Of a stretch of DNA of 20,220 bases, positions 1,684 to 14,703 are shown piece by piece (within the stretch, counting starts at the first letter, position 1; each line of letters begins with the position of its first letter). Location: contig JAIFLK010000258.1 of assembly GCA_020049115.1 (NCBI GenBank), positions 1 to 20,220 of the forward strand, in the 5' to 3' direction. The stretch comes from Chloroflexota bacterium (GTDB lineage Bacteria > Chloroflexota > Anaerolineae > 4572-78 > J111). The notes under the pieces were generated by a model. That model did not search any database. It worked only from the letters and a program-made list of their open reading frames with translations, and was not told the origin of the DNA. The translations under genes were made by a program, and so were the position numbers.

Positions 1684-1728
1684 AGTTTTGCTCCTAAGTA
1701 CCCAAGCAAAAGTTTTGCGGCATGTTTT

Positions 1729-1761
1729 AGCCCTTATAAGGCTTAAAGCCTTATAAGGGCT
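1729..1761. repeat. Perfect hairpin, 14-bp stem and 5-nt loop (agcccTTATAAGGc-ttaaa-gCCTTATAAgggct); member of the TTATAAGG hairpin repeat family
   Basis: Reverse complement of the left arm equals the right arm exactly. The same core recurs at 2955, 6408, 7679 and 12337. Confidence 0.8.
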
Positions 1762-1819
1762 GCCCCAGAATTTATGCTCACCTACTTATATAATATGCCA
1801 AATTGTTTCAATCGCGAAG

Positions 1820-1843
1820 TCCAACGGGTTATAACCCATTGGA
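1820..1843. promoter_or_regulatory. 24-bp near-perfect DNA palindrome TCCAACGGGTTATAACCCATTGGA, candidate operator
   Basis: 11 of 12 symmetric positions pair and the centre is TTATAA. It lies ~140 bp upstream of the 10..1683 gene start on the minus strand. TATAAT-like boxes are adjacent (ctagctataat, acttatataat). Confidence 0.3.
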
Positions 1844-1869
1844 CTCCCTCTAGCTATAATAATGCTTAA

Positions 1870-2913
1870 TTACGCTGCTAACCGTGACCCAACATCACGA
1901 AAATTGGGGTCTTCAGCATAAATTTTCTCAAACTCTTTACGGGCTTGGGCGCGCTTACCTGAAGTTTCGTAAGCAACCGCCCGCCAATAAGCTGCCTCGC
2001 GCAATAATTCAGGGCTGCGGTCTTTCTTACTTCGCAAGGCTTTAGTCAAAACCGTACTCGCCGCGTCCGCCATGTTTTTGGCTAACAACGCCCGCGCATA
2101 CATGGTAGCAATCGCCAATGTTACGTTATCTATCACTTCGACTTTGCTGGCGCGCTCAATTAGCTCATCCCAGGCTTGGGCTTCGGCGTATAACTCACAT
2201 AACGATAACGTTAACACTGGCTCAGGGGCTAATGATTCCACCTCTTCTAACAAGGCAATCGCTTCATCCATGCGCCCTTGTGTTTGATAAAGTTCCGTCA
2301 ACAATAACACGGGGGCTAACCCTTCCACTGGCACTGAGGCGGTCAGCGTGGGCGTAATGGCAATGTCAATACAGGCCCCCGCCAAATATTTCTGCATCAA
2401 CGCGCTCGGATATTCCGCGTCACTTTGCACAATACTTTCTAATAAAGGCAACGCGCGGCGTTGGTCACTACTACTGCGCTTGCTCAAAATATCTGCCGCT
2501 AATAAGGCCGCGCCAGGTTCAGTGGCAATATCCAAAAATATGCGTAAGGCTTCGTCCAGGTTATTCGCCTGATAAAACTCTAACGCCTTCGCTAACCCTT
2601 TTTCCTCCGTTGAGGCAAACATGCCAGGGCTAGGCAGGGCAGGGGCAGTTTGAGTAGCAACGGCATTATTAGCCGCAGCCTTACTATTTCCGCCGCCGCC
2701 AAATAATGTCCAAAAATTAAGGCCATAGCCCGCCCCAATTTGTTTCGTATAGCTCAAACCCGTCCCAGGAATACCCACCGTAAAACTTGTTCCCGTTGGC
2801 CCCGTATTTAACCGTAAGCCTTGCACGCCAACGCTGGCCCCCACGCCCGTTTTACTCACATTCAAACGGAAAAGTTTACCTAATGAAATTCTTTTTTGAA
2901 AACGAAACCCCAT
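1870..2913 (-). CDS. DUF4236 domain protein with C-terminal TPR-like helical repeats
   Basis: N-terminus 'MGFRFQKRISLGKLFRLNVSKTGVGASVGVQGLRLNTGPTGTSFTVGIPGTGLSY' matches the DUF4236 signature (RF.K...G.RLN.SKSG.s.SvG..G...n.G..G....GIPGTG). The remainder is Ala/Leu-rich with TPR-like periodicity (e.g. ...AYWRAVAYETSGKRAQARKEFEKIYAEDPNF). Confidence 0.65.
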   Translation of the reverse strand: MGFRFQKRISLGKLFRLNVSKTGVGASVGVQGLRLNTGPTGTSFTVGIPGTGLSYTKQIGAGYGLNFWTLFGGGGNSKAAANNAVATQTAPALPSPGMFASTEEKGLAKALEFYQANNLDEALRIFLDIATEPGAALLAADILSKRSSSDQRRALPLLESIVQSDAEYPSALMQKYLAGACIDIAITPTLTASVPVEGLAPVLLLTELYQTQGRMDEAIALLEEVESLAPEPVLTLSLCELYAEAQAWDELIERASKVEVIDNVTLAIATMYARALLAKNMADAASTVLTKALRSKKDRSPELLREAAYWRAVAYETSGKRAQARKEFEKIYAEDPNFRDVGSRLAA

Positions 2914-2928
2914 GATAATATTCCTTTA

Positions 2929-2944
2929 TATTAGTTAGTTAGTT
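2929..2944. repeat. (TTAG)4 microsatellite giving stop codons in all three frames on both strands
   Basis: ttagttagttagttag sits between the start of the DUF4236 gene and the stop of the MVP-like gene. Confidence 0.7.
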
Positions 2945-2954
2945 AGCGAGTCAG

Positions 2955-3013
2955 CGTTAAGCGAGTCAGCGATTATAAGGCTCAAAGCCTTATAATCGCT
3001 GACTCGCTTAACG
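2955..3013. repeat. Perfect 27-bp-stem palindrome (cgttaagcgagtcagcgattataaggc-tcaaa-reverse complement), a composite of the GCGAGTCAGC repeat and the TTATAAGG hairpin core
   Basis: Reverse complement of 2955-2981 equals 2987-3013. 'agcgagtcagcg' occurs twice in tandem (2944-2955, 2961-2972) and again, inverted, at 5481-5553. Confidence 0.85.
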
Positions 3014-4393
3014 TGTCTCAATGCTTAAATTAACGTCGGCGGGGGTGAAATAAAGGGTCGCATTACCCTGACTCACCGCCTCTAACGCCTCTTGTTTTCG
3101 TAAGGTATTAAAAATCGCCAGCTTATTTGGCAAAGGTAACTCCTCGCCTAACCCATTAAGGAAGGCTTGCACCTTAAACGCCTCCGCCTCACCCGCCGTC
3201 AACGCCTCCACTTGGGCATGGTCACGCCGCAAGGCCAACAGTTGCCCACGCATCTGCTCCGCCTCAATTTCACCTTTAATCTGTTTCAACTTCGTTTCAT
3301 TTTCACTCTCTTGCTTTTGTTGCCGATTGAGACGGTTGGTGGTTTCAGTGATAATTTCCTGTAATATCCGTTGCGTGGCGGCATCTTTACAGGAAATAGA
3401 GCGCACCTCCACCGCATTGAGTTGCACCCCGCGCTCGGTATAAAACGTCATATCACTTTCTAACACCGCCTGATAAATGATTAAATTGAAACTCGCCAAA
3501 AATTTCTCCAGCGTCACCTGTGACACCGATTGAATGATGGCACTGCGAGCATGGGAGCAAATATCGCCTGGCGTGTCATCGGTTTTGCTAATCATGGCCT
3601 CAAAATCCGCCACCGCCCAAAAAAAGGTAATGCCAATCGTTAATTCTACGTTATCTTGAGTCCGCGCCTCAAACTCATACCACATGAACTTCGGACGCAA
3701 ATCAAACTTGGTCAGGCGCAAATCGCGACGCTCTTTATGCAGCCCCGTTGACCAGCGCAACTCCACAATTTCGGAGTAAGGGTCAAGAAAAAAGGCACGG
3801 TCAGGGTCGGTGCCGCGCTTAATGGTATATTTCCCTGTTCTATCACGGATAATAACGACTTCGTTATCTTCCAATAAAATCCGTTGACGCACTTTTACAA
3901 TTTCTTGTTGGGCGGTTGGAATAAAAACTTGCGGTGTCGTAATTAACTCCAACTGCCCCGTATGCGTATCACGCACCATGACGGCAGTTTGTTCATCAAT
4001 GTTAATCCCATCTTCAACTTTAACGATGATTTGCTCAGTCGGTTGCACATAGATACTTTGCTCCCCTCGTTCCACCCGCACCATGCCTGTTTTTTCGTCC
4101 ATGATACGAACATATTGATGTTTTTTCAGGGGAACAGCCTGTAATTCAACATCAATTTCATCAGTTGCTGACAGAAACAATAATTTTGGCCCAATTTCAA
4201 TCCGTTTTTCACCTGTTAAAACATTAAGCACCCGTACATAATCGGTTGGCCCCAAAACAGTCGCCTTACGCCGCTTCACCCGCCAAAAGGGGCGCGCCCA
4301 ACATTGGCCAGGCCCATTCACCACCCACCGTTTGCTAAAGGCTGCAATGAGTAACTGTTCGTCATCTTTGAGAAAGTATAGCCAGGGAATCAT
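3008..4393 (-). CDS. Major vault protein (MVP) homologue, short bacterial form: ~4 MVP repeats, an SPFH-like shoulder domain and a cap-helix region
   Basis: 461-aa ORF. Repeated ~50-aa modules 'YVRVLNVLTGEKRIEIGPK', 'YVRIMDEKTGMVRVERGEQSIYVQP', 'AVMVRDTHTGQLELITTPQVFIP' and 'VVIIRDRTGKYTIKRGTDPDRAFFLDP' resemble MVP repeats. The segment 'TQDNVELTIGITFFWAVADFEAMISKTDDTPGDICSHARSAIIQSVSQVTLEKF' aligns with the eukaryotic MVP shoulder (…ADHARLQLQLAYNWHFEV…[27 protein letters not shown]…). A following E/Q/A-rich helix resembles the cap-helix. Confidence 0.65.
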   Translation of the reverse strand: MIPWLYFLKDDEQLLIAAFSKRWVVNGPGQCWARPFWRVKRRKATVLGPTDYVRVLNVLTGEKRIEIGPKLLFLSATDEIDVELQAVPLKKHQYVRIMDEKTGMVRVERGEQSIYVQPTEQIIVKVEDGINIDEQTAVMVRDTHTGQLELITTPQVFIPTAQQEIVKVRQRILLEDNEVVIIRDRTGKYTIKRGTDPDRAFFLDPYSEIVELRWSTGLHKERRDLRLTKFDLRPKFMWYEFEARTQDNVELTIGITFFWAVADFEAMISKTDDTPGDICSHARSAIIQSVSQVTLEKFLASFNLIIYQAVLESDMTFYTERGVQLNAVEVRSISCKDAATQRILQEIITETTNRLNRQQKQESENETKLKQIKGEIEAEQMRGQLLALRRDHAQVEALTAGEAEAFKVQAFLNGLGEELPLPNKLAIFNTLRKQEALEAVSQGNATLYFTPADVNLSIETR

Positions 4394-4412
4394 GCACGCT
4401 CCTTCTGAATGA

Positions 4413-5357
4413 TTATGATTGAGGCGATTGCTCAGGAAATTTCACTAGGGCGTTAAAATCAGTTAGGGTGGGAACGGTGAAAAGATGGTCACTGAGTTGG
4501 TCAAAGGTGGTGGAGTCCTTAATGCTGTTTAATTTTGCTATCAGGTAAGGGGGCAGTGGCCCAAATCTAAGTACCAATAAGCGCATGAGCAATTGTCTTT
4601 TCCCTTTAACCTCGCCAATGGCTTCGCCTATGGCCTTACCTTTCGCTTTGGCTTTAAGGGCAATACGTTCACTCCATGTTAATTCAACTTGAGCTAAATG
4701 AGTCATAATATCACTTTCTCCTACAGCTATTTTTTTACTAGGTAAATAGGTTTGGACTAGATTGACTAGATAAAGTTGGTCGGCTAATTCTAGTTCACTA
4801 TTCATCACCGATTCTAAGGCGGCTAATTTGACCGCAGCTTTCTCATGACTTGCTGATTTCATTAAGGTGGCGAGGGTAGCGGCAACGGGGTCGCCACTTA
4901 TCAGGTAATCATGGCTTGGTAAATCCCGTATGCCCACTTGCCCATAACGAAAATGAATCAATTCCTCCTCGAACAACGATTCACGATAACTTTTCCAGGC
5001 TAGGCCACCTACTTTGGGCAATAAAACCAGAGTTAAGGGTAAAATGGGCTTTTGGCGTAAAACCCGTAGTAAAGCATAATATTCAAAAAGACGTTGGGGC
5101 AAAGTAGTTTTATTTTGCTTTTCTATCTCTACATGAACAATAATGACTTCAGGTTGCCCACTAAATGTTTCGACTTCGGCCACCACATCGGGAATACGGA
5201 GGAAGGTATTAGGCAGGTTGATGATGAGTTCTCTTTCTAAAAAGATGAGGGTTTTAAAATTAAGATGAATTGCTTTTTCAGGAAAAAATAGCGTGACAAA
5301 TTCGGGTAGGAAACGATGAAAGAACTCTTTGAACAAACGGTCATGTAAGGTTGACAT
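4413..5357 (-). CDS. Rpn-family recombination-promoting nuclease / putative transposase (PD-(D/E)XK N-terminal domain plus C-terminal DUF4351)
   Basis: 'MSTLHDRLFKEFF' matches the Rpn/YhgA N-terminal HDxxFK motif. 'VIIVHVEIEKQ' is the PD-(D/E)XK core. The C-terminal 'KGKAIGEAIGEVKGKRQLLMRLLVLRFGPLP…' resembles DUF4351. The ORF track starts 14 codons further upstream at 5399; the Met at 5357 fits the family N-terminus better. Confidence 0.6.
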   Translation of the reverse strand: MSTLHDRLFKEFFHRFLPEFVTLFFPEKAIHLNFKTLIFLERELIINLPNTFLRIPDVVAEVETFSGQPEVIIVHVEIEKQNKTTLPQRLFEYYALLRVLRQKPILPLTLVLLPKVGGLAWKSYRESLFEEELIHFRYGQVGIRDLPSHDYLISGDPVAATLATLMKSASHEKAAVKLAALESVMNSELELADQLYLVNLVQTYLPSKKIAVGESDIMTHLAQVELTWSERIALKAKAKGKAIGEAIGEVKGKRQLLMRLLVLRFGPLPPYLIAKLNSIKDSTTFDQLSDHLFTVPTLTDFNALVKFPEQSPQS

Positions 5358-5480
5358 GAGAAAATTATAGCCGTAAAACCACCTAGAGACAATAAACATG
5401 GCGTTATTTTGTAAGGCAAGGGGTTAGCCTAATTTTGACATATTTTAACTATTATGGAAAATCAAGCTAAATCAAACTTT

Positions 5481-5553
5481 AATAGCGAGTCAGCGAGTCA
5501 GCTATCAGCAAAAAAGCTGACAGACTGAACGCTGACTAGCTGACTCGCTGACA
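5481..5553. repeat. Imperfect inverted repeat built from GCGAGTCAGC units (agcgagtcagcgagtcagctatcagc … gctgactagctgactcgctga)
   Basis: Direct tandem 'gcgagtcagc' on the left arm and its reverse complement on the right. It lies in the divergent intergenic region between the Rpn gene and the histidine phosphatase gene and belongs to the same family as 2944-3013. Confidence 0.7.
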
Positions 5554-5567
5554 ACTGAAGGCTAAAT

Positions 5568-6296
5568 ATGGAACTCTATCTCATTCGTCATGGTCAATCT
5601 TACAACAACGCGCTGCCCGACCAAACCCAGCGCGTGGCTGAACCACCCCTAACCGCGCTCGGCCTGCGCCAAGCGGCTGCCGTCGCGGAATATCTCGCCA
5701 CAGGAATTAATCGAGAATTTATTGTTCGTAATATTAACGCTGTTGAAATGACTCAACTCACTTACCAAAAAGGGTATGGTATTACGAAACTTTATTGCAG
5801 TGCCATGTATCGTGCCATGCAAACCGCCCAACCCATTGGACAGGCTTTAGGCTTAAACCCCGAAATCTGGCTGGATATTCATGAATATGGCGGCATTCAT
5901 TCGACCATTGATGGGGAGGAAGTGGGGCAGCCTGGCAAAAGTCGCGCCGAAATTTTGGCCGAATTTCCTAACTATATCTTACCTGACGGCGTGACCGACA
6001 AAGGGTGGTGGTTTGGCGGCCATGAAGATTGGCCGCTGTGCCATGCCCGCGCCATCCGTACCGCCCGCGCCTTGAAAGAGCGCGCCCATCTTAAGGAAAA
6101 AATCGGCCTGGTGGCGCACGGCGGCTTTATTGATGTGTTGCTGAAAGCCCTGTTCAATCAATTGCCGAGCATGAATCTTTTTTATCATCTTTACAATACC
6201 TCTATTACGCGGCTTGATTTTGACCCCGAAGGCCGTTTTATTGAGGTCATCTGCCTCAACCGTATCCACCATTTGCCACCAGAGTTGATTTCGTAA
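5568..6296 (+). CDS. Histidine phosphatase family protein (phosphoglycerate-mutase-like, branch 1)
   Basis: N-terminal 'LYLIRHGQSYNN' is the RHG catalytic motif and a second His is in 'LVAHGGF'. Length is 242 aa. The RBS 'gaagg' is upstream. Confidence 0.8.
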   Translation: MELYLIRHGQSYNNALPDQTQRVAEPPLTALGLRQAAAVAEYLATGINREFIVRNINAVEMTQLTYQKGYGITKLYCSAMYRAMQTAQPIGQALGLNPEIWLDIHEYGGIHSTIDGEEVGQPGKSRAEILAEFPNYILPDGVTDKGWWFGGHEDWPLCHARAIRTARALKERAHLKEKIGLVAHGGFIDVLLKALFNQLPSMNLFYHLYNTSITRLDFDPEGRFIEVICLNRIHHLPPELIS

Positions 6297-6304
6297 TTAT
6301 ATTA

Positions 6305-6350
6305 CAAAAAGGGTAAGTCCAGGCCATGCCTAGACTTGCCCTTTTTATTA
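6305..6350 (+). terminator. Intrinsic terminator after the histidine phosphatase gene
   Basis: Stem aagggtaagtc…gacttgccctt (one G·U pair) followed by ttttt. Confidence 0.6.
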
Positions 6351-6351
6351 T

Positions 6352-6379
6352 GGTCAATCACGCAGTTTTATGCTATAAT
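6352..6379 (+). promoter_or_regulatory. Sigma70-type promoter with extended -10 (TGcTATAAT) for the esterase gene
   Basis: TATAAT at 6374-6379 with TG at 6371-6372. A weak -35 'ggtcaa' lies ~17 bp upstream. Confidence 0.5.
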
Positions 6380-6407
6380 GGGGCATCATTTCAATGAGAG
6401 GAAAACT

Positions 6408-6441
6408 AGCCATTATAAGGTTCTGAAACCTTATAATGGCT
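6408..6441. repeat. TTATAAGG-family hairpin (agccaTTATAAGGtt-ctga-aaCCTTATAAtggct) in the 5' UTR of the esterase gene
   Basis: Perfect 15-bp arms. It sits between the extended -10 promoter and the RBS/ATG at 6455. Confidence 0.8.
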
Positions 6442-6454
6442 GAGGCAATCAGCT

Positions 6455-7471
6455 ATGAGCCAAATTGTGATAGAAACCGTTATAAGTGAACTCTTAAAAC
6501 ATAACCCCCTCGGCGACCCGCGCACCCGCCGCGTGCCAGTCTATTTACCTGATGGGTATGACGATAGCGAGGCCGATTATCCCGTAGTTTATTTATTGGC
6601 GGGTTTTACGGGGCGTGGCACGTTAATGCTCAACGACTCCGCTTTTGGCGAGACCATTCATGAACGCATGGACAGGCTCATTGCCAGTGGCCGCGTGCAG
6701 CCCATGATTTTGGTGATGCCTGATGGCTTCACCCGTTACGGCGGCAGTCAATATCTCAATTCCTCCGCCACTGGGCGATATGAAGACCATCTCGTGCAAG
6801 AGTTAGTTCCTTGGATTGACGAACGCTACCGCACCCGCGCCGAAGCGGGCTATCGCGCGATTGCGGGCAAATCCTCTGGTGGCTATGGCGCGATTGTCCA
6901 AGCCATGCGTCATCCAGAGGTGTTTGGGGCAGTGGCCTGTCATAGCGGCGACATGTATTTTGATTTTTGTTACAAGCCCGATTTTGTGAAGTTTCTTAAC
7001 GCAACGGCTCGCGCTAAATTAACTACGCCTGAAGCCTTAGCTGAATTTCTGGCCGCGTTCTATCCTAAAATGCACCCTAAGCCAAGTTACTTTTTTGACC
7101 TCATTCATACCTCTGCCATGTCGGCTTGTTACTCACCCAACCCTGACTCACCATGTGGGTTCGATTTACCCATCGACTTTGTTACAGGTGAGTTACGAAA
7201 AGAGGTGTGGCAGCGTTGGCTAGAGCATGACCCTATCACCATGTTACAAAACAATGAGCATGTCATGGCTCTGCGCGGAGCCAAGCTGGTTTATCTTGAT
7301 TGTGGCAATCAAGATGAATATGCCTTACATTATGGGGCGCGGATTTTTGCCCAACGGTTGCAGGCCTTAGGCGTGCCGCATGTTCATCAAGAGTTTGACG
7401 GTACACACCGCGACACCGAACATCGTTATGATGTTTCGTTGCAAGCTATTTCTGAGGCATTTGCGGCCTAA
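6455..7471 (+). CDS. Esterase family alpha/beta-hydrolase (PF00756 putative esterase / esterase D–enterochelin-esterase-like)
   Basis: 338-aa ORF. 'VVYLLAGFTGRG', 'LVMPDG' and the nucleophile elbow 'GKSSGGYGA' (GxSxG) are present, with a downstream 'HSGDMYFD'. The RBS 'tgagg' is 8 nt upstream. Confidence 0.7.
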   Translation: MSQIVIETVISELLKHNPLGDPRTRRVPVYLPDGYDDSEADYPVVYLLAGFTGRGTLMLNDSAFGETIHERMDRLIASGRVQPMILVMPDGFTRYGGSQYLNSSATGRYEDHLVQELVPWIDERYRTRAEAGYRAIAGKSSGGYGAIVQAMRHPEVFGAVACHSGDMYFDFCYKPDFVKFLNATARAKLTTPEALAEFLAAFYPKMHPKPSYFFDLIHTSAMSACYSPNPDSPCGFDLPIDFVTGELRKEVWQRWLEHDPITMLQNNEHVMALRGAKLVYLDCGNQDEYALHYGARIFAQRLQALGVPHVHQEFDGTHRDTEHRYDVSLQAISEAFAA

Positions 7472-7480
7472 AACCCTAAC

Positions 7481-7667
7481 GCCTAGCTGTCCTAGTACAC
7501 CGTTCATTTAATTATTAGTATATCCGAACAGACAGGAATGTCTGTTCCACCGTTGGTAGGTCAGACATTCCTGTCTGACAATGTCTGTTCCACCGTTGGT
7601 AGGTCAGACATTCCTGTCTGACCATATACTAAAAACTAAATGAACAATCCACTAGTACAGCTAGGCA
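7481..7667. mobile_element. MITE-like non-autonomous element: ~43-bp terminal inverted repeats around two tandem ~44-bp units, each carrying small palindromes
   Basis: Left end 'gcctagctgtcctagtacaccgttcatttaattattagtatat' versus the reverse complement of the right end 'gcctagctgtactagtggattgttcatttagtttttagtatat' (~80% identity). The internal unit 'aatgtctgttccaccgttggtaggtcagacattcctgtctgac' occurs twice in tandem and contains the palindromes acagaca…tgtctgt and gtcagaca…tgtctgac. Confidence 0.6.
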
Positions 7668-7678
7668 TGAGTAACTAA

Positions 7679-7716
7679 CCAGCCGTTATAAGGTTCAAAA
7701 CCTTATAACGGCTGGA
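7679..7716. repeat. TTATAAGG-family hairpin (ccagccgTTATAAGGtt-caaa-aaCCTTATAAcggctgg)
   Basis: Perfect 17-bp arms. It lies just right of the MITE-like element and upstream of the DUF4397 gene promoter. Confidence 0.8.
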
Positions 7717-7754
7717 CGCACTACGCGTTAAAATTTCAACGCAAGGGGCTAACC

Positions 7755-7783
7755 TTGTTTTTATGATGTAAAATCGCTACAAT
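7755..7783 (+). promoter_or_regulatory. Candidate sigma70 promoter for the DUF4397 gene (TTGTTT-17-TACAAT)
   Basis: -35-like 7755-7760 and -10-like 7778-7783 with a 17-bp spacer, ~45 bp upstream of the ATG at 7829. Confidence 0.4.
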
Positions 7784-7828
7784 GGTAGATAATACTATTT
7801 CATTATTTTTTGTCGGGGGTTCTTTCTA

Positions 7829-8707
7829 ATGAAGCTAACAAGTCGGTTCGTCCCATTAATATTGGCACTATTGTTCATGGTCGCCACCCAACCCTTCACC
7901 CAAGCACAAGGCGAATTGCCCTCGGTGCGGGTCGTTCACACCTCACCCGATGCGCCACCGTTTGATGTGTTAGCCAACGGCAGGTTGACCTTTCCCCAAG
8001 TGAAATATGGCACGGCTTCGGACTATCGCCCCTTTAATGCGGGCAATTATAACCTATTACGGGTATTGACGACAGGCTTAACCTCCACCGCTGTCTTAAC
8101 GATGGGCCTTGATTTGAGTTTCAATACTCATTATAGTGTCTTAATGTTAGGGCGTGCCACCAATTTGAGCGCGCTCACATTGGTCGATGACCCCATCATG
8201 CCGCCGCTAGGTCAAGCTAAATTACGTTTTGTTCATGCTGCCCCTGATGCCCCTGCCGTAGACATTGCGCTTCGAAATGGGCGAGTGCTGTTTAGTAATG
8301 TGGCTTATAAGTGGATTGGGGCTTATCAAACGGTGGCCGCGGGAACGTATGATTTAGAAATTCGTGTGGCTGGCACAACCCAAATTATTACGACAATTCC
8401 CCAGGTACAATTAAATTCCGCCACCGTCCACACCATGTTAGCCATTGGCCTATTATCAGGCCCGCAGCCAGGTCTTAACGTACTTTTGTTAAATGATGTT
8501 TCTAGTGGCTTAACCCCGCCCATGGAGTCCAAATCTTTAGATTTGACTGCGCCACATTACTATTATCACAACTACACCCCCGCCGACCTGAACCAGTATC
8601 CACCGCCCGTTTATTATCAACCCCAGGAAATACACCCCCTGAATTATTACGAAGTTGCTCCCAATTCCGCCTATCCCCCTCCGTGTCCTACCAGGCGTTG
8701 TTGGTAA
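7829..8707 (+). CDS. Secreted DUF4397 domain protein
   Basis: Signal peptide 'LILALLFMVATQPFTQAQG'. The repeats 'VRVVHTSPDAPPFDVLANG' and 'LRFVHAAPDAPAVDIALRNG' match the DUF4397 signature (VR.VHASPDAP.VDV..DG). The C-terminus is Pro/Tyr-rich. Confidence 0.65.
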   Translation: MKLTSRFVPLILALLFMVATQPFTQAQGELPSVRVVHTSPDAPPFDVLANGRLTFPQVKYGTASDYRPFNAGNYNLLRVLTTGLTSTAVLTMGLDLSFNTHYSVLMLGRATNLSALTLVDDPIMPPLGQAKLRFVHAAPDAPAVDIALRNGRVLFSNVAYKWIGAYQTVAAGTYDLEIRVAGTTQIITTIPQVQLNSATVHTMLAIGLLSGPQPGLNVLLLNDVSSGLTPPMESKSLDLTAPHYYYHNYTPADLNQYPPPVYYQPQEIHPLNYYEVAPNSAYPPPCPTRRCW

Positions 8708-8718
8708 ACTTGTTAAAT

Positions 8719-8751
8719 AGACCTCACAGGTTTTTAAAACCTGTGAGGTCT
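8719..8751. repeat. Hairpin agACCTCACAGGTTT-tta-AAACCTGTGAGGTct, a variant subfamily sharing the AGGTT…AACCT inner core
   Basis: Perfect 15-bp arms, 12 bp after the DUF4397 stop. A sister copy lies at 14671-14703. Confidence 0.75.
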
Positions 8752-8779
8752 GGTAACGTAAGTTCTATAGGAATAAACT

Positions 8780-9487
8780 ATGACCATCCCCATGTGGATG
8801 CAAGCAAATGCCTGGCGCGAGATTTTTGCTCGTGCCTTTGAAAATTGGCCTGTTCAAGTCAACATCTCCCCCGAATGGCTCATTAATCCTGAGACTCATC
8901 GGCGGCTGAAATTAGATTTATTTTACCCTGATGCTCAGATCGCGGTGCGTTTTGAGGGGATACAGCCCGAAAAGCGGAAAGCCCGCCCTAGCTTAGAGGA
9001 AGAAGAACAACAACGCGCCCGCGAGACCGCGAGAGTGGAGGTTTGCCGTGAGCATGGCGTTCATTTATTGTTACTTGATGCCGCCTCAGAGGAAATTGCG
9101 GATGAGTTCCTACAAGTAGACCTCATTTTGAGCCAAGCCCAACGCGCCCTTACCGATGTAACCTGGCAAGAAAATATCAAGACCGCCCGCTTCAAAATCG
9201 CCCAAATTGGGCGACCTTTAACCCAAATTAACTCTCTTAAAACGTATGCCGATTTATGGGAAGACCGCCAATTTCAAATGGCACTCCCTCAAGAAAATCA
9301 AAAACCTGCTGCCGCCCCCACCATTTTTACCGTGGGCATGGATGTCAATCATCAGCTATTTGGCCTCGGTACAATTTTACAAGTTGAGCCAAGTGCCTCC
9401 GATGTTATCCTCACGGTGGATTTTTTGGAAGCGGGTAAAAAGATGTTTGCGGCCAGTTTAGTGGCAGATAAATTGAATACATTGTAG
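8780..9487 (+). CDS. Hypothetical protein: N-terminal DUF559/Vsr-like restriction-endonuclease-fold motif and C-terminal UvrD-C/DUF3553-like (Tudor-like) motif
   Basis: 'LKLDLFYPDAQIAVRFEGIQPEK…RETARVEVCREHGVHLL' resembles the DUF559 pattern (D.y.P.…lAiE.DG…). The C-terminal 'FTVGMDVNHQLFGLGTILQVEPSASDVILTVDFLEAGKKMF' resembles the UvrD C-terminal / DUF3553 pattern (G.rV.H..FG.G.v…V.F…G.K.l). Both are weak motif-level matches. Confidence 0.4.
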   Translation: MTIPMWMQANAWREIFARAFENWPVQVNISPEWLINPETHRRLKLDLFYPDAQIAVRFEGIQPEKRKARPSLEEEEQQRARETARVEVCREHGVHLLLLDAASEEIADEFLQVDLILSQAQRALTDVTWQENIKTARFKIAQIGRPLTQINSLKTYADLWEDRQFQMALPQENQKPAAAPTIFTVGMDVNHQLFGLGTILQVEPSASDVILTVDFLEAGKKMFAASLVADKLNTL

Positions 9488-9508
9488 GGGCTGAAAATCT
9501 TCAGCCCC
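9487..9508 (+). terminator. GC-rich stem-loop (ggggctgaa-aatc-ttcagcccc) immediately after the 8780..9487 stop
   Basis: Perfect 9-bp stem overlapping the stop codon. The downstream U-tract is weak (ctgtttatttggtttt). Confidence 0.4.
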
Positions 9509-9566
9509 CACTGAACTGTTTATTTGGTTTTATACTGCGTACCGAATGAAAATGGCACTTTTGGCG

Positions 9567-9617
9567 TAGGAGTCCGCAATTATTTGCGGGCTGTCCGCAA
9601 AGGATTGCGGACTCCTA
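9567..9617. repeat. Palindrome gtaggagtccgcaat…attgcggactccta with a nested hairpin gcggg-ctgt-ccgc; a partial direct copy lies at 9828-9853 (gtaggagtccacaattccttgtggg)
   Basis: 14-bp perfect inverted arms. The partial copy is ~80% identical over 25 bp and sits 36 bp before the 9889 start codon. Confidence 0.6.
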
Positions 9618-9639
9618 ATCATCATAAAAGTGTAAGTCT

Positions 9640-9745
9640 CAAACGAAATGCAGTATAGTACATGGTCAGACAAGAATGTCCGACCTACCGACGGTAGAAC
9701 AGACATTCTTGTCTGTTCGGATATGCTAGAAATTAAATAAATAGT
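9640..9745. mobile_element. Degenerate single-unit copy of the 7481-7667 MITE-like element, in opposite orientation
   Basis: 'gtcagacaagaatgtccgacctaccgacggtagaacagacattcttgtctgttcggatat' is ~90% identical to the reverse complement of 7524-7583. The flank 'gctagaaattaaataaatag' resembles the reverse complement of the element-1 terminal repeat. Confidence 0.5.
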
Positions 9746-9888
9746 CCCCTACGTATAGATTTAAGTTAACAATTGTTAAGCTACTTGGCAAAATAAGCCG
9801 CTAATTATATAATAGGGGGAAATATGTAGGAGTCCACAATTCCTTGTGGGCAGTTCCCTCATAACCGCGCCTAATGGAGAAGTAAATT

Positions 9889-10980
9889 ATGTTATGGCAA
9901 AGCTACTATACCCCTGAATCGCTTGATGAAGTTTTAGACTTGCTGGCAGAACATCGTGAAAAAGGGCCTCGTTTATTGGCTGGCGGCACGGATTTAATGG
10001 TTGAAATTGAGCGTAGCCAGCAACCCCCCAAAATTGTCATTGATGTAAGTTGTATCCCTGGTTTAGATACTATTTGGCAAGATGAACAAAAAAATATCCA
10101 TTTAGGGCCATTAGCCACCCATAATCAAGTGGTTGGCTCTAAATTATGTGTCCAAAAAGCCTTCCCTCTTGCCCAAGCATGTTGGCAAGTCGGCTCACCC
10201 CAAATTCGTAATCGTGGCACGGTGGCGGGCAATATCGTAACCGCGTCGCCCGCGAATGATACCATTACGCCTCTCGTGGCTTTGGGCGCGACCCTGACCC
10301 TGAAAAGTGTGCGCGGCAGTCGCGCCGTCAAAATTGATGAATTTTTCAAAGGGGTGCGCTCAACGGTGCTAGAACCTGATGAAATGGTGGTTGATATTAG
10401 CTTTCCCGCGCTCAATGGCTACGAAATCGGCACATTTATTAAGGTTGGCTTGCGGCGCGCTCAGGCTATTTCCGTGGTAAACATTGCGGTAGTTTTGGGC
10501 ATGTTCGCCGATACCATTACTCGCGCTCGGATTGCTTTTGGTAGCGTTGCCCCAACGATTATCCGCTCTTTTGATGCGGAACGCTTTTTGAGTGGCAAAG
10601 TGATGACCCAAGAGGTCATTGACCGTGTGGGGGCGATTGCCGAGCAAACCATTTTTCCCATTAGTGATGTGCGCGGTTCCGCCGAATATCGCCGTTATAT
10701 GGTTAAAACCGTGACCCGCCATGCGCTGCAATCTCTCAGCCAAGGCACCGAGTCGGACATCTTTCCGCCCAAACCCGTTATGTTATGGGGCAAAACTAAT
10801 GGCTCATTTAAGCCGCATGAGGGTGGTTCAGTGGTGCATACGGTGGATAAAAATGAGCCGATTAGCACCACTATTAATGGTCAACCGCAGGCGATTAGCG
10901 GGGCAAATGGCAAAACCCTCCTCCGCATGTTACGCGAAAACGCGAACTTGACTGGTACGAAAGAGGGTTCGCGAACTTGA
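9889..10980 (+). pseudogene. Xanthine-dehydrogenase-family FAD-binding subunit (CoxM/XdhB-like). Its 3' end already encodes the start of the [2Fe-2S] domain; it is truncated by a frameshift from a 29-bp tandem duplication
   Basis: FAD_binding_5 motifs are present ('LLAGGTDLMVE', 'GTVAGNIVTASPANDTITPLVALGATL') and the CO-dehydrogenase flavoprotein C-terminal region is present ('RGSAEYRRYMVKTVTRHAL'). The tail '…[33 protein letters not shown]' corresponds to the N-terminus of the 2Fe-2S small subunit and then runs into SRT-stop. Confidence 0.7.
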
Positions 10981-10998
10981 CTGGTACGAAAGAGGGTT
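10941..10998 (+). repeat. Exact 29-bp tandem duplication (cgcgaacttgactggtacgaaagagggtt ×2) inside the fused FAD/[2Fe-2S] gene
   Basis: Positions 10941-10969 are identical to 10970-10998. 29 is not a multiple of 3. Deleting one copy reads through in frame as …[18 protein letters not shown]…. Confidence 0.9.
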
Positions 10999-11369
10999 GC
11001 GCCGAGGGCGAATGTGGGGCCTGTACGGTGATGTTAGATGGCATTGCAGTGGATAGCTGCCTCGTGCCAGCCCCGCGCGCCCATCAAAGTGAGATTGTTA
11101 CGATTGAAGGATTGGCGCAAGGTGAAACCCTGCATCCTGTTCAACAGGCATTTATTGATGAAGGCGCGGTGCAATGTGGTTACTGTACGCCAGGCTTTTT
11201 GATGAGTGGAGCTAATTTGATGGAAGAACGTAAACGCCCGACTCATGATGATATTAAGCAAGCCATTACGGGTAATTTGTGTCGCTGTACGGGATATTAC
11301 AAAATATTGCAAGCGTTAGAGCAATCCTGTGGCGTGGTTTCGGCCAAGCCTAGAATGAAGCATAATTAA
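10977..11369 (+). pseudogene. [2Fe-2S]-binding small-subunit (CoxS/XdhC-like) portion of the disrupted fused gene; the ORF begins at TTG and lacks its own N-terminal ~35 residues
   Basis: Plant-ferredoxin-type motif C-x4-C-x2-C-x11-C ([22 protein letters not shown]) and the second cluster CGYCTPGF…CRCTGY are present. The N-terminal β-grasp residues are encoded in the upstream ORF. Confidence 0.7.
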
Positions 11370-11406
11370 AATTTGGGTAGCTGATTTATGACTGTAAGGA
11401 GGTATT

Positions 11407-12330
11407 ATGACCACATTAACGCTAGAAATGGCTGAGACCACGAATTTAACTGAAACACCCTCTGACCCATACCTTTACGGTTGGCGACAGGTGACGCGTT
11501 ACGCGCCTGATGGGGAGATGGTGTTTGTGCTTCAGCCCTTAACCTTAGATGATATATTACACCCCCAAGAGGATGACCAACGGATGCACGCGCCTTACCA
11601 TGAACGAATTTGTCGTTATTTAGCCGATGTTTTTGCAACCTATTTAGCCCATGACCCGACTGTTCAGGTCTTTACTGATTTGCGGGTGGCGTGGAATCAT
11701 CCTTACATTGACCCGCATACACCTGATATTTCGGTGGTCTTTGGGGTGAATAATCAGGGGCAGGAATGGACTACTTTTTATGAAGCCAAAGAGGGAACGC
11801 GGCCAACTTTGGTGGTAGAAGTGACCTCACCCTCCACGCGATTGTTAGATTTGGTGGATAAGTTTGACGAGTATGAGCGCGTTGGCTTAGAGTATTACAT
11901 TATTATTGACCGTGTTAAACAGCGCAGTAATGTACAACGGCGAGTGTTAGGGTTTCATTGGACACCACAGGGTTATGAAAAGTTACCTTTGAATGAACAA
12001 GGTTGGTTGTGGTTAGAGCCTGTGCGGGTTTGGGTCACTTGGGAAGACGATGAAATAGTTTGTTATGATGAACAAGGCAAATCTATTCCTAATTATCTCG
12101 CTGTAACCCAGGCCTGGGTTGAAGCGGAGGCTAAAGCTGAGGCGGAGGCTACGGCGCGGGTTGAAGCGGAGGCTAAAGCTGAGGCGGCGGCTACGGCGCG
12201 AGTTGAAGCGGAATCTAAGGCGCATGCAGCGGAGGCCAAAGCTGAATCCGAAGTTAAAGCGCGGGTTGAACTTGAAGCCCGTTTACAACAGCTTGAAGCG
12301 GAGTTGCGCCGTTTACAAGGCAATAGTTAA
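11407..12330 (+). CDS. Uma2-family (DUF820) restriction-endonuclease-like protein with a C-terminal Ala/Glu/Lys-rich coiled-coil repeat extension
   Basis: 'RPTLVVEVTSPSTRLLDLVDKFDEYERVGLEYYIIIDR' matches the Uma2 core (P.l.vEV.SpsT…D…K…Y…Gv.EYwivD). There is a strong RBS aaggaggt 6 nt upstream. The C-terminal repeats are (VEAEAKAEAEATAR)n and end in LQQLEAELRRLQ. Confidence 0.7.
   Translation: MTTLTLEMAETTNLTETPSDPYLYGWRQVTRYAPDGEMVFVLQPLTLDDILHPQEDDQRMHAPYHERICRYLADVFATYLAHDPTVQVFTDLRVAWNHPYIDPHTPDISVVFGVNNQGQEWTTFYEAKEGTRPTLVVEVTSPSTRLLDLVDKFDEYERVGLEYYIIIDRVKQRSNVQRRVLGFHWTPQGYEKLPLNEQGWLWLEPVRVWVTWEDDEIVCYDEQGKSIPNYLAVTQAWVEAEAKAEAEATARVEAEAKAEAAATARVEAESKAHAAEAKAESEVKARVELEARLQQLEAELRRLQGNS
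12118..12290 (+). repeat. Tandem ~54-bp coding repeats (gaagcggaggctaaagctgaggcggaggctacggcgcgggtt…) encoding the Uma2 C-terminal coiled-coil
   Basis: Near-identical units are visible at 12118-12171 and 12166-12219, with degenerate units after. Confidence 0.6.
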
Positions 12331-12336
12331 ATGGTC

Positions 12337-12369
12337 AGCCCTTATAAGGTTTTGAACCTTATAAGGGCT
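12337..12369. repeat. TTATAAGG-family hairpin (agcccTTATAAGGtt-ttg-aaCCTTATAAgggct) between the Uma2 gene and the molybdopterin subunit gene
   Basis: Perfect 15-bp arms. The outer arms are identical to the 1729 copy, while the inner core is the AGGTT/AACCT variant. Confidence 0.8.
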
Positions 12370-12427
12370 TAAAGTTGTCTGTGGCGATTTTTTTGAAAAT
12401 CCTAAAATTATTTATAAGTAGGTCAAC

Positions 12428-14662
12428 ATGAGCAATCAACTCATTGGCACATCTATCAAACGAATCGATGCACGCGGCAAGGTCACAGGGGAGGCCATTT
12501 ACCCTGGTGACCGTAATTTTGGCGATGAATTGTGGCTTAAAATACTCTTCGCCCGCCGCCCCCATGCCCGCGTGGTCAAAATTAATACTAAAGCTGCCGA
12601 AACGTTGCCTGGTGTATTGGGCATTTTAACGGCCAAAGATGTCCCCGTCAATCAATATGGTTTGCAAGTCCCTGACCAACCCGTTTTATGCGGCCCTGGC
12701 TCCAATAAAAAAGGGGGCGATATTGTGCGCTTTATCGGCGACCATGTGGCGGTGGTGATTGCGGAAACGGAAGAAATTGCCACCAAAGCCCGCGATTTAA
12801 TTCGGGTGGAGTATGAGGATTTGCCCGTAGTTTATAATGCGGAATATGCCATGTCAGGGCAAGCCCCACAGTTGCACCCCAATGTGGCGAAAAATATCGC
12901 GGCTTATCAGCGTATTCGCAAAGGCGATACGGACGCGGCCTGGAATGAATGTAATATTATTATTGAAGGGACGTATCAAACACCATTTCAGGAACATGCC
13001 TATTTACAGCCCGAAGCGGGTACGGCTTACATGGACGCTGAGGGACGGATTACAGTACATTGCGCGGGGCAATGGACATGGGAAGACCAACAGCAAATCG
13101 CCCATGCTTTGGATTTGCCACCCGATAAAATTCGGGTGATTTATGATGCCATTGGTGGGGCATTTGGTGGCCGCGAAGATATGAGTGTGCAAATCGTTTT
13201 GGCTCTGGCCGTTTTGCGGATGTATCAACGGCATGGCAATCGCCGCCCCGTTAAAATTATTTGGACGCGCGAAGAGTCCATGATTGGTCACTGCAAACGT
13301 CATCCCATGCTTTTTCGCACGAAATGGGGCGCGAAACGGGACGGTAAATTGGTGGCGGCGGAGGTGGAAATTATTGCCGATGGCGGCGCGTACATGTACA
13401 CGAGTAACAAAGTGTTAGGCAATGCCGTTATGTGTTGCACGGGGCCGTATGAATTTAGCCATGTCAAAGTGGACGCGTACGCGGTTTATACCAATAATTT
13501 GGTGTCGGGCGCATTTCGCGGGTTTGGTGCGCCGCAAGCCCATTTTGTGGCGGAAATGCAAATGAATAAATTGGCCGAGAAAATGGGTAAAGACCCCGTA
13601 GAAGTACGGCTGAAAAATTTGCTCACCGTTGATTCTACGCTGTCCGTTGGCACGACTATCCCTGGCGGAGTCAGTTTGGAGAAGGTGCTGCGGGAGGCCG
13701 CTTGGCAATCTAACTGGCGCAGTCGGGTTGGCCCGCGCGGGGAGAATGACCCTGATTTTCCTGATGAGTTGCCGCGTTTAGTGAAGGGCAGTGGCGTGGC
13801 AGTGGCCTTCAAAAATATCGGCTTTAGCTTGGGCTATCAAGAAAATAGCTGGGCGGGGGTTGAATTTCATGGCGAAAGCGATATTGAGCAAGTGATTGTT
13901 AAAATTGCGGGGGCAGATGTGGGGCAGGGGCATCACACGGTCATGGCGCAAATCGCGGCTGAGGTTGCGGGGGTGGGCATGGATAAAGTGAAGGTTGAGG
14001 CTTCCGATACCGCGTTTACCGAAAGTTCTGGCAGTGCGAGTGCGTCGCGCCTCACCTTTATGGCGGGTAATGCAGTTAAAGAGGCGGCGCAATTTGCGCT
14101 CAAGAAATGGCGGTCAGAAGAGCGTCCTGCCATTGCCGAGGCCACCTGGCTTGCCCCGAAAACCACCCCCTTTGACCCACAAACGGGGCATAGTTTACCC
14201 AACTTTGCGTATGGTTATGTGGCGCAGGTGGTGGAGGTGTTGGTGGATACCGAGACGGGCAGTATTACGGTGCAACGGGTGGTTTGCGCCGATGACGTGG
14301 GCAAGGCGATTAACCCTGAGCAAATTATCGGGCAAATTGAGGGCGGGATTGTGCAGGCGCATGGGTATGCGCTGTTGGAAGATTTTCGCATGGACAAGGG
14401 GCAGGTTTTAACGCCCAATTTCACTACCTATCTTATCCCTGGGGTGTATGATATTCCGAAACAAATTGTCCCCATTATTGTGGAAGACCCACATCCCCAA
14501 GGCCCCTTTGGGGCGCGTGGCATGGCCGAAATGCCGATGATTCCATACACGCCCGCCGTCGCTGCCGCCGTATTTGATGCCATTGGTATTTGGTTTGATG
14601 AGTTTCCTTTGACCCCAGAACGGGTTTTACGGGGGCTAGGCAAGGTGCGGAGTCGGCTGTAA
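12428..14662 (+). CDS. Xanthine dehydrogenase / aldehyde oxidase family molybdopterin-binding large subunit
   Basis: 744-aa ORF. N-terminal a/b-hammerhead region 'IGTSIKRIDARGKVTGEAIYPGD'. The active-site segment 'SGAFRGFGAPQ' matches the XDH/AOX 'AFRGFGGPQ' motif rather than the CODH AYRCSFR or AYRGAGR loops. Confidence 0.8.
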   Translation: MSNQLIGTSIKRIDARGKVTGEAIYPGDRNFGDELWLKILFARRPHARVVKINTKAAETLPGVLGILTAKDVPVNQYGLQVPDQPVLCGPGSNKKGGDIVRFIGDHVAVVIAETEEIATKARDLIRVEYEDLPVVYNAEYAMSGQAPQLHPNVAKNIAAYQRIRKGDTDAAWNECNIIIEGTYQTPFQEHAYLQPEAGTAYMDAEGRITVHCAGQWTWEDQQQIAHALDLPPDKIRVIYDAIGGAFGGREDMSVQIVLALAVLRMYQRHGNRRPVKIIWTREESMIGHCKRHPMLFRTKWGAKRDGKLVAAEVEIIADGGAYMYTSNKVLGNAVMCCTGPYEFSHVKVDAYAVYTNNLVSGAFRGFGAPQAHFVAEMQMNKLAEKMGKDPVEVRLKNLLTVDSTLSVGTTIPGGVSLEKVLREAAWQSNWRSRVGPRGENDPDFPDELPRLVKGSGVAVAFKNIGFSLGYQENSWAGVEFHGESDIEQVIVKIAGADVGQGHHTVMAQIAAEVAGVGMDKVKVEASDTAFTESSGSASASRLTFMAGNAVKEAAQFALKKWRSEERPAIAEATWLAPKTTPFDPQTGHSLPNFAYGYVAQVVEVLVDTETGSITVQRVVCADDVGKAINPEQIIGQIEGGIVQAHGYALLEDFRMDKGQVLTPNFTTYLIPGVYDIPKQIVPIIVEDPHPQGPFGARGMAEMPMIPYTPAVAAAVFDAIGIWFDEFPLTPERVLRGLGKVRSRL

Positions 14663-14670
14663 GTTTAGTA

Positions 14671-14703
14671 AGACCTACAAGGTTTTAGAAACCTTGCAGG
14701 TCT
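14671..14703. terminator. Hairpin agACCTACAAGGTTT-tag-AAACCTTGCAGGTct (one A/C mismatch), 8 nt after the stop of the molybdopterin subunit and followed by T-rich sequence; sister of the 8719 hairpin
   Basis: Inverted repeat with 14/15 pairing, followed by taggtttta. Confidence 0.5.

Follow-up and report, generated by a model that had tools for sequence, protein, structure and literature searches.

In Escherichia coli the repetitive extragenic palindromic (REP) elements are short, high-copy extragenic hairpins with imperfect, bulged stems; several REP families are present per genome, they form bacterial interspersed mosaic elements (BIMEs), and one HUH/Tyr gene, which encodes the REP-associated tyrosine transposase (RAYT, or TnpA-REP), is flanked by repeat arrays. 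To our knowledge, nearly all work on REPs and RAYTs concerns Proteobacteria, and the movement of REPs is unproven, with direct observation for no REP. This work concerns a stretch of 20,220 nucleotides (nt), hereafter the window, of a Chloroflexota bacterium (GenBank assembly GCA_020049115.1, contig JAIFLK010000258.1, positions 1 to 20,220), in which seven hairpins are located between genes. Five of them carry the arm cores TTATAAGG and CCTTATAA and are termed the TTATAAGG family; the remaining two belong to a sister family. It is probable that these hairpins are REP-type elements, i.e., DNA-level, non-autonomous palindromic repeats of 33 nt, which constitute the cognate class of one RAYT (HUH/Y1) lineage. 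REP and RAYT are a known kind of element; new is the 33-nt hairpin family in an uncultured member of Anaerolineae. With the E. coli system it shares the short, high-copy extragenic hairpins, the one HUH/Tyr gene with flanking repeat arrays, the several families per genome, the BIME-like mosaics and a predicted transposase fold nearest to that of 4ER8. It departs from that system in its perfect 15-bp stems and the length fixed at 33 nt, in the lack of a 5′ GTAG guide in the TTATAAGG family, in the position of the sister GTAG inside the 3′ arm and not at the foot, and in the host, which is a member of Anaerolineae and not a proteobacterium.

Judged by its sequence, the RAYT lineage described below resembles subclass 2.4, which was characterized by the NH[IFV]H motif, by in-frame REPs inside the gene (a trait unique to this subclass) and by long canonical or “double-foot” REPs (Quentin et al., 2018; PMC6006769), and whose published Tyr consensus is YIxNNP (PMC6006769). 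Subclass 2.4 corresponds to Group 4 of Bertels et al. (2017; PMC5581495), which is common in Cyanobacteria, Chlorobia and Caldilineae and for which only ~14 genome-wide occurrences of the flanking 16-mers were reported (PMC5581495). The lineage studied here has the HUH motif NHFH, in-gene REPs in four of five homologues and long or double-foot REPs, and a scattered distribution across phyla, including Cyanobacteria, Bacteroidetes and the Chloroflexi class Caldilineae, is common to both. The Tyr motif differs (YIHRNP instead of YIxNNP), and one 33-mer family reaches at least 145 copies, compared with ~14; a group with so far modest repeat numbers would be extended by a genome in which at least 145 copies were counted in ~870 kb. 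REPINs (Bertels and Rainey, 2011; PMC3116915) are similar in that changes in both arms keep the pairing, near-identical copies occur with dominant masters and a RAYT is present, but they consist of two inverted REPs and a spacer, usually exceeding 70 nt, whereas the dispersed copies described here are single 33-nt hairpins and not inverted REP pairs with a spacer. Doublets occur here solely in the array next to the RAYT gene, within its 88-nt units. Another class of short repeats, the small dispersed repeats (SDRs) of 20–30 nt, often nested in other repeats, was reportedly described by Elhai et al. in 2008 in Nostoc punctiforme, a filamentous species in which heptamer repeats abound and whose SDRs are not known to be linked to a RAYT; we know of no sequence relation between SDRs and these hairpins.

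The sampled DNA was collected in a metagenome pattern scan, in which the TTATAAGG core was fixed and positions 5/29 and 14/20 were left free. At least 119 loci (831 kb) from JFJP01 and the Middle Island Sinkhole (MIS) samples of JGI were recovered, and ~18 kb of recovered window flanks were added, which gave ~870 kb in total, i.e., only part of the genome. A crude call of open reading frames (ORFs) classified ~83% of this DNA as coding and ~17% as non-coding. It contains 363 unique perfect hairpins with a stem of at least 10 bp, whose lengths peak sharply at 33 nt (148 of 363), a 15-bp stem being present in 140 and a 3-nt loop in 231. When up to five substitutions were allowed, at least 145 unique copies were assigned to the TTATAAGG family, the consensus of which, AGCC-N-TTATAAGG-Y-T / YAA / A-R-CCTTATAA-N′-GGCT, combines a stem of 15 bp with a loop of 3 nt. 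The stem is perfect in 132 of the 145 copies (91%), and Watson–Crick pairing is present in 2155 of 2175 stem cells. The wide pattern search proposed in an earlier note on this DNA gave at least 145 distinct copies and not just those of the window, and the copies are intergenic in 125 of 133 cases (94%), compared with the non-coding share of ~17%.

The element starts with A at position 1 and ends with T at position 33 in 111 of 113 copies; in these 113 copies the bases directly outside it show no complementarity, so it is sharply bounded. Neither target-site duplications nor direct repeats were found in the flanks of 112 copies, and there are no terminal inverted repeats beyond the hairpin itself; the label of a mini-MITE (miniature inverted-repeat transposable element), which the earlier note had considered alongside that of a REP-like family, is therefore not suitable. 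A genuine 122-nt MITE of the same population (ends GAGTTTATACCGATT... and ...AATCGGTATAA...) does have a 4-nt ATTA target duplication, whereas the 33-mers have none; this MITE is polymorphic twice (L052/L135 and L086/L137) and is active or recently active in the population. As a separate observation, an asymmetric flank preference was noticed around the TTATAAGG copies, with TTTA before and G(G/A)CC after the 33-mer: 25% of copies outside the larger host repeats (types A–D, see below) match at least 6 of the 8 flank positions, compared with 2% of random positions. This flank could be a target site or the end of a longer element.

A RAYT gene and the hairpins that accompany it are also evidence for the REP reading. 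A tblastn search with an E. coli RAYT sequence identified a RAYT-like HUH/Tyr gene ~8.8 kb to the left of window position 1 (L025:13339–13869). In that contig the product has 176 aa owing to a frameshift in an A8 run, and the intact protein of 216 aa (P0144) is encoded on 13 other contigs. P0144 matches the NCBIfam profile NF047646, “REP-associated tyrosine transposase,” with E = 1.7e-12 over profile positions 9–146 of 146. The sole PDB sequence match of the RAYT is 4ER8, the E. coli TnpA-REP bound to a REP, and the same entry is the best structural match (E = 8e-8) of its AlphaFold2 model (pLDDT 89.6), followed by the transposases of IS200, IS608 and ISDra2. In 67 homologues the residues N57, H58, H60 and Y146-I147-H148 are invariant, F59 of the HUH motif N57-H58-F59-H60 is conserved in at least 90%, and the Tyr motif YIHRNP is conserved across homologues; many of 4483 homologues bear the JGI label “REP element-mobilizing transposase RayT.” Upstream of the gene there are four 88-nt units, each composed of two sister-type hairpins (ACCTACAAGG... 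and AGACCTGCAAGGTTT...), and two hairpins follow downstream. The array is polymorphic, since the number of 88-nt units is four or two, depending on the assembly (L164–L168, L025). The RAYT with its flanking sister hairpins has the classical REPtron layout, and the expectation of the earlier note that such a gene might be present elsewhere in the genome was borne out, with the qualification that sister hairpins, and not TTATAAGG copies, flank it. No 33-mer was found inside P0144. In L167, the sequence downstream of the RAYT switches to a different repeat exactly past the GTAG of a hairpin arm.

The association of 33-nt hairpins with this transposase recurs in other genomes. Five RAYT homologues (~56–61% identity) were compared, i.e., those of Ca. 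Halobeggiatoa sp. HSG11, Chloroflexota BroJett011, GCA_029940435, a 6.6-Mb ENA genome and a JGI contig. All five genes have flanking hairpins of 33 nt with the pattern A[G/A]ACC-N5-GGTTT / 3–4 nt loop / AAACC-N5′-GGT[C/T]T, and in four of the five a hairpin of that form is also present inside the RAYT gene; the RAYT lineage with 33-nt hairpins thus spans Chloroflexota and a Beggiatoaceae genome. The sister copies of the window, at 8719 and 14671, belong to this RAYT-flanking class; the sister family carries GTAG or GTGA within the 3′ arm. With this class the TTATAAGG family shares the length, the stem and loop sizes, the AG...CT ends and the inner GGTT/AACC. The organism has 33-mers of the CTACAAGG, CTCACAGG and TTATAAGG families, and an AGTCATCAGGTGACT 33-mer family is present in the same genome. 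The suggestion of the earlier note that the hairpins form a REP-like family is thus upheld by at least 145 copies, 94% of them intergenic, by the RAYT in the vicinity and by the five homologues with hairpins of the same geometry.

Hairpins with the TTATAAGG core are also present in other phyla: a pattern scan of genome contigs returned at least 19 loci, and among the matches listed none comes from the source organism. The 33-nt hairpins of L005, L007, L008, L016, L019, L020 and L022 have the TTATAAGG core with other outer arms; several TTATAAGG-core 33-mers with the arms AACTT..AAGTT are found in a Bacteroidetes metagenome-assembled genome (MAG) from the Eel River mats, and those of a Cytophagales MAG have the arms AGCGT..ACGCT. 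No RAYT was detected by tblastn in the 2–8 kb of sequence covered at each TTATAAGG-core locus of Bacteroidota and other organisms. The presence of these 33-mers in Bacteroidota MAGs, among them PH2015_13U_35_20 and the Cytophagales bin70, hints at a spread across phyla. A contig classed as viral, L169 (IMG/VR UViG_3300033518_000555, from a MIS sample), carries two TTATAAGG hairpins and a GTAG double-foot palindrome, and probably represents DNA of the same bacterium, either a prophage or a fragment that was wrongly classified.

The earlier note had also drawn attention to compensatory variation between the arms. In the two stem pairs that were left free in the pattern scan, this was confirmed: 5/29 and 14/20 are Watson–Crick in 112 of 113 copies each. 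The outer pair (5/29) is A-T in 72 copies, T-A in 30, C-G in 9 and G-C in 1, with one mismatch, and the inner pair (14/20) is T-A in 83, C-G in 28 and G-C in 1, with one T·G. Among 44 distinct sequences both-sided changes occur at 8 of the 15 stem pairs (47 cells); the covariation values were reached by none of 500 shuffles on any measure, and they collapse in slid registers. Of the 20 non-Watson–Crick cells 4 are G·T and 7 are A·C, the remaining 9 being of other types, so G·T is not in excess and the G·U tolerance that selection at the RNA level should leave is not seen; A-T pairs are exchanged for T-A pairs without a wobble intermediate. The family is dominated by few sequences (37, 19 and 16 identical copies), and the covariation represents perhaps a dozen master-level events and not a hundred independent ones. 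The second part of the claim, that secondary structure is under selection, is accordingly inferred from a handful of changes in master copies.

How could such elements spread? On the model of E. coli TnpA-REP and the IS200/IS605 transposases, the element would fold to a hairpin in single-stranded DNA, a RAYT would recognize this hairpin, cut and rejoin it, and the copies would spread. Only copies with a perfect stem would remain substrates, and it is proposed that the variable stem positions change on both arms because a perfect stem is needed; correction of quasi-palindromes by template switching may contribute. Copies would build up where they are tolerated, i.e., in intergenic DNA, and in many cases at the tip of another palindromic repeat, giving rise to mosaics like the BIMEs of E. 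coli, and the strong hairpins in transcripts of 3′ and 5′ untranslated regions (UTRs) would be a side effect and not a defining trait. A RAYT, either P0144 or an unseen paralogue, would mobilize or would have mobilized the TTATAAGG family, and a mechanism acting on single-stranded DNA is suggested by analogy. As for the mosaics, four larger palindromic repeats that recur in this DNA (host types A–D) hold ~60% of 143 copies at their centre, and 40% are located in none of them. The useful features of this system are the exact 33-nt length with perfect stems, at least three co-resident families, the polymorphic RAYT arrays and the same geometry in other phyla. Due to this regularity the recognition rules should be easy to read: the outer AG(A)CC and the inner GGTT(T) are conserved, and the middle is free and merely paired.

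Several observations weigh against the REP reading. The guide tetranucleotide GT[AG]G was found in none of the TTATAAGG 33-mers, which read ATAA where the sister family reads GTAG; this tetranucleotide is also absent from the REPs of subclass 2.6 and class 3 (PMC6006769). No RAYT flanked by TTATAAGG copies was detected in ~870 kb, the single RAYT being accompanied by the sister family, and the same DNA yielded no second RAYT, either by tblastn or with the family hidden Markov model on six-frame ORFs; the peptide of an in-frame TTATAAGG 33-mer (S-H/L/P-Y-K-V-Q/L-N-L-I..) was found in none of 120 RAYT homologues. The score of P0144 against NF047646 (47 bits) is below the curated cut-off of 80, and P0144 has no match to Pfam PF01797. 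No clean presence or absence of a 33-mer was found in ~67 kb of near-identical contig pairs, in which one 12-nt arm deletion was seen and short tandem duplications of 22–51 nt were the commonest indel. The divergent haplotype L030 is devoid of the 12337 copy together with ~15 nt of flank, but this absence is imprecise and lies at a recombination boundary, at the edge of a region of 84% identity. No empty hosts of type A or B were found, every detected host arm being followed by a 33-mer, which makes insertion at the apex inseparable from co-amplification with gene conversion or loop flipping. Finally, the perfection of the stems may owe much to recent amplification from few perfect masters, of which 37, 19 and 16 identical copies exist.

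Given the host repeats, the mobile unit might be the larger palindromic repeat of ~100–140 nt (types A–D, with CTAGTAC...GTACTAG or GTAGT...ACTAC-like ends) with the 33-mer as its apex, and isolated 33-mers would then be remnants or recombination products of composites. Both parts of this explanation are unlikely. It accounts for the ~60% of copies in the four host types, for the lack of empty A and B hosts among the detected arms, for the pairing of the 33-mer flanks with each other (median of 10 cross pairs vs. 4 in control spacers, p = 2e-8) and for chimeric hosts joined at the 33-mer, e.g., A-left + 33-mer + C-right. However, the 40% of copies outside all four hosts are not explained in this way, the boundary of the 33-mer is sharp and identical in every context, one host-type junction holds both loop orientations and several 33-mer subfamilies, and the hairpins that flank RAYT genes in six genomes are bare 33-mers, not enclosed in a host of this kind. 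Type C hosts also differ at their centre: the 15 copies have there the 33-mer, the 16-nt palindrome AGCCCTTATAAGGGCT or an unrelated insert. The 16-mer (5 copies) is likely a slippage product, since it equals the 33-mer minus 17 nt between the direct repeats CTTATAAGG. A more specific version of the REP reading would treat the 33-mer as the minimal self-contained REP unit, inserted by preference at the single-stranded apex of other extruded hairpins so that nested mosaics arise, with palindromy regenerated not by slow selection but by fold-back or template-switch copying of one arm from the other (loop flip) and with travel across phyla together with the RAYT. This version is tentative and in our opinion rather doubtful; if true, it would offer a tractable system for watching REP movement.

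The readings in which the hairpin acts by itself or lost its enzyme are less probable again. The earlier note had proposed, as another option, a structured RNA motif that serves as a terminator, RNA stabilizer or protein-binding site. A motif kept by selection on the transcript, i.e., a terminator without a U-tract, a block to 3′ exonucleases or a regulatory hairpin of 5′ UTRs, is quite improbable here as the primary nature of the repeat. E. coli REPs stabilize upstream mRNA, and the copies are indeed located in transcribed spacers, at a median distance of 40 nt from the upstream stop codon in tandem gene pairs, in which 51 of 80 are nearer to that stop than to the next start; those at 8719, 12337 and 14671 sit 6–11 nt past stop codons, so that, as in intrinsic terminators, a stable hairpin directly follows the stop in three of the seven window copies. 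The copies nevertheless occupy convergent (13) and divergent (12) spacers in addition to the tandem ones (80), and with respect to the sense strand the two loop orientations are represented by 41 and 28 copies. A T-rich tail is present at only one of the seven window copies (6408), on the strand without a gene, separate canonical terminators are found at 6315–6337 and 7741–7758, terminator-like sites in the window are in total no more numerous than in shuffles, and no Rfam 15 match at the gathering threshold was found in the window. The low count of G·T (4 of 20 cells), the A-T/T-A swaps and the transposase gene flanked by sister-family arrays point in the same direction. Intrinsic terminators were rejected in view of the AT-rich stem, the missing T/U tract, both orientations, the placement also in 5′ UTRs and divergent spacers, and the separate canonical terminators nearby. 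Since there is no T-tract, both orientations occur and G·U tolerance is missing, the hairpins are probably neither terminators nor a dedicated RNA motif, and in annotation they should be masked as repeats and not taken for terminators or novel RNA motifs. It is very unlikely that the family is an orphan or fossil one, the RAYT of which was lost or was never there, and which was spread by another transposase as a tiny MITE or by recombination or gene conversion. The lack of a cognate RAYT in 870 kb, of GTAG and of clean insertion polymorphism among near-identical strains is in agreement with this possibility, and genomes with REPs but without a tnpA-REP gene are known (PMC6006769). On the other hand, just part of the genome was sampled, target-site duplications and terminal inverted repeats beyond the hairpin are missing, the exact geometry is common to the RAYT-flanking class, and many identical copies argue for recent amplification. 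It was also considered that each arm is a palindromic double-stranded DNA site (CCTTATAAGG) for a dimeric protein (a global regulator, nucleoid protein or restriction-modification enzyme), the 33-mer representing two sites. Although each arm of the AGCCC subfamily holds the 10-bp palindrome CCTTATAAGG, and AGCCCTTATAAGGGCT stands at the corresponding position of some hosts of type C, this is extremely improbable: A at position 5 (72 of 113) and T at position 14 (84 of 113) both break the palindromy within the arm, the arms still pair with each other in 112 of 113 copies, AGCCCTTATAAGGGCT is rare, and 33-nt families of unrelated sequence share the geometry. The arm as a double-stranded protein-binding palindrome was therefore rejected, in-arm palindromy being not conserved; a search of the published literature for the sequence CCTTATAAGG returned nothing relevant.

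The seven hairpins of the window stand at the positions given in the earlier note, as a pattern search and a perfect-hairpin scan confirmed. The pattern TTATAAGG-N(3–12)-CCTTATAA has five matches in the window (1734, 2973, 6413, 7686 and 12342) and none is expected from 100 dinucleotide-preserving shuffles. All seven are intergenic, as had been stated, the sole detail being an extended stem that touches a stop codon (2955–3013), and the arms, described before as always perfectly complementary, are so in six of the seven, the copy at 14671 having one A/C mismatch. As single-stranded DNA the seven have folding energies of −11 to −34 kcal/mol (relative to shuffles, the z-scores range from −5.4 to −15), and the plain 33-nt copies with 15-bp stems have −14 to −16 kcal/mol. 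The 33-mer at 1729–1761, AGCCCTTATAAGGCT-TAA-AGCCTTATAAGGGCT, has a 15-bp stem and a 3-nt loop and is placed between ORFs 10–1683(−) and 1870–2913(−); an identical 33-mer was found in four further loci. It lies at the centre of a type C host repeat (1695–1790, GTACCCAAGCAAAAGTTTTGCGG..[centre]..CCGCAGAATTTATGCTCACC), and window positions 1695–1784 match L151 over 92 nt with 94.6% identity. The hairpin at 2955–3013 has a perfect stem of 28 bp and a folding energy of −33.9 kcal/mol. The family 33-mer within it occupies 2968–3000 (AGCGATTATAAGGCT-CAA-AGCCTTATAATCGCT) and belongs to the AGCGA..TCGCT subfamily, which is also present at other loci; the 13 bp on the outside come from additional arms particular to this locus (CGTTAAGCGAGTC/GACTCGCTTAACG), and the extended stem overlaps the stop codon of ORF 3008–4393(−).

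The copy at 6408–6441, AGCCATTATAAGGTT-CTGA-AACCTTATAATGGCT, has a 15-bp stem and a 4-nt loop. Its placement just before a start codon, noted earlier, was verified, since the ATG at 6455 starts 13 nt downstream; a promoter-like site (6351–6379) is located upstream, as is a separate terminator-like hairpin with a T-run (6315–6337). The copy at 7679–7715 (AGCCG..CGGCT), whose 33-mer proper is 7681–7713 and whose stem is extended to 17 bp, sits in a composite repeat region (~7500–7740) followed by a separate terminator-like hairpin (7741–7758). Positions 7580–7726 of the window match repeats in L146 and L070 (85–87% identity), and the composite is related to host type A. For the three remaining copies the location right after stop codons, at a distance of 6–11 nt, agrees with the earlier description. 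The sister 33-mer at 8719–8751, AGACCTCACAGGTTT-TTA-AAACCTGTGAGGTCT (15-bp stem, 3-nt loop), begins 11 nt past the stop of ORF 7829–8707 and represents the RAYT-associated class A[G/A]ACC-N5-GGTTT, with at least 12 further copies of its type in other loci. The second sister 33-mer, at 14671–14703 (AGACCTACAAGGTTT-TAG-AAACCTTGCAGGTCT), is of the same subfamily as the RAYT-flanking hairpins, and is placed 8 nt past the stop of ORF 12428–14662 and upstream of a promoter-like site of tRNA-Leu. The TTATAAGG-family 33-mer at 12337–12369 (15-bp stem) has the 3-nt loop TTG, the reverse complement of CAA, and begins 6 nt past the stop of the Uma2 ORF (11407–12330). This Uma2-family gene, encoding a putative PD-(D/E)XK nuclease, and the 12337 hairpin lie between the genes of the flavoprotein/Fe-S and molybdenum (Mo)-binding subunits. 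In the relatives L036 and L038, which do not have the Uma2 gene, these two genes adjoin (28 nt apart in L036), and in L030 the Uma2 region has 84% identity.

The window was assigned to the WGS project JFJP01, and its locus recurs at 99.3–100% identity in many MIS mat metagenomes. The named best matches of DNA polymerase I, encoded on a contig of the same population, are only Anaerolineae and Chloroflexota (at most 68% identity), and the nearest relatives of the Mo-binding dehydrogenase subunit of the window are Anaerolineales (75–81%). A cyanobacterium, which was suggested by the Uma2 and DUF4351 genes and by the mat source, was rejected, since the proteins are Anaerolineae-like, 2-oxoglutarate dehydrogenase E1 is present in the population, and tblastn over 870 kb found no PsbA, RbcL or CpcB (photosystem, RuBisCO and phycocyanin, respectively). 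The host is an uncultured member of Anaerolineae (Chloroflexota) from the MIS mats. In Anaerolineales bacterium HSG6 (L038), which is of similar G+C content, equivalent spacers contain other perfect hairpins of 29–33 nt with CAA/TTG loops, e.g., AGAAACCCGATTTCT-TTG-AGAAATCGGGTTTCT, and in relatives with 58–60% G+C (L036, L037) no such hairpins were found in the equivalent spacers.

Other repeats of the window accompany the 33-mers. A 28-nt “double-foot” palindrome, GTAGAGACAGGGCATGCCCTGTCTCTAC, is located at 16581–16608 within an ORF of 1100 aa for a cyclic nucleotide (cNMP)-binding protein (14968–18270(−)), where it encodes ..VETGHALSL.. and has the appearance of a REP within a gene. This 5′ GTAG...CTAC 3′ family, another REP-like one of the genome, has 15 copies in 870 kb, of which 12 are intergenic. 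Another hairpin family, at 7526–7547, 7602–7623 and 9697–9718, is composed of (G/A)AACAGACA..TGTCTGTTC and GGTCAGACA..TGTCTGACC; the AACAGACA and GGTCAGACA hairpins have ~16 copies each in 870 kb, mostly as an adjacent pair. At 9526–9663 there is a repeat of ~130 nt with nested hairpins (GGAGTCCGCAAT...ATTGCGGACTCC), which is found with 85–100% identity in at least eight other loci. Tandem duplications occur in the window as well. A perfect 29-nt duplication at 10941–10998, in the gene of the FAD-binding/[2Fe-2S] subunit, splits an ORF of 483 aa (intact in L001 and L002) into 363 and 130 aa, and reflects either a genuine allele with a frameshift or an error of the assembly. A perfect 43-nt duplication (2.0 copies) extends over the CAGACA-type hairpins at 7537–7622, where other MIS contigs have one copy.

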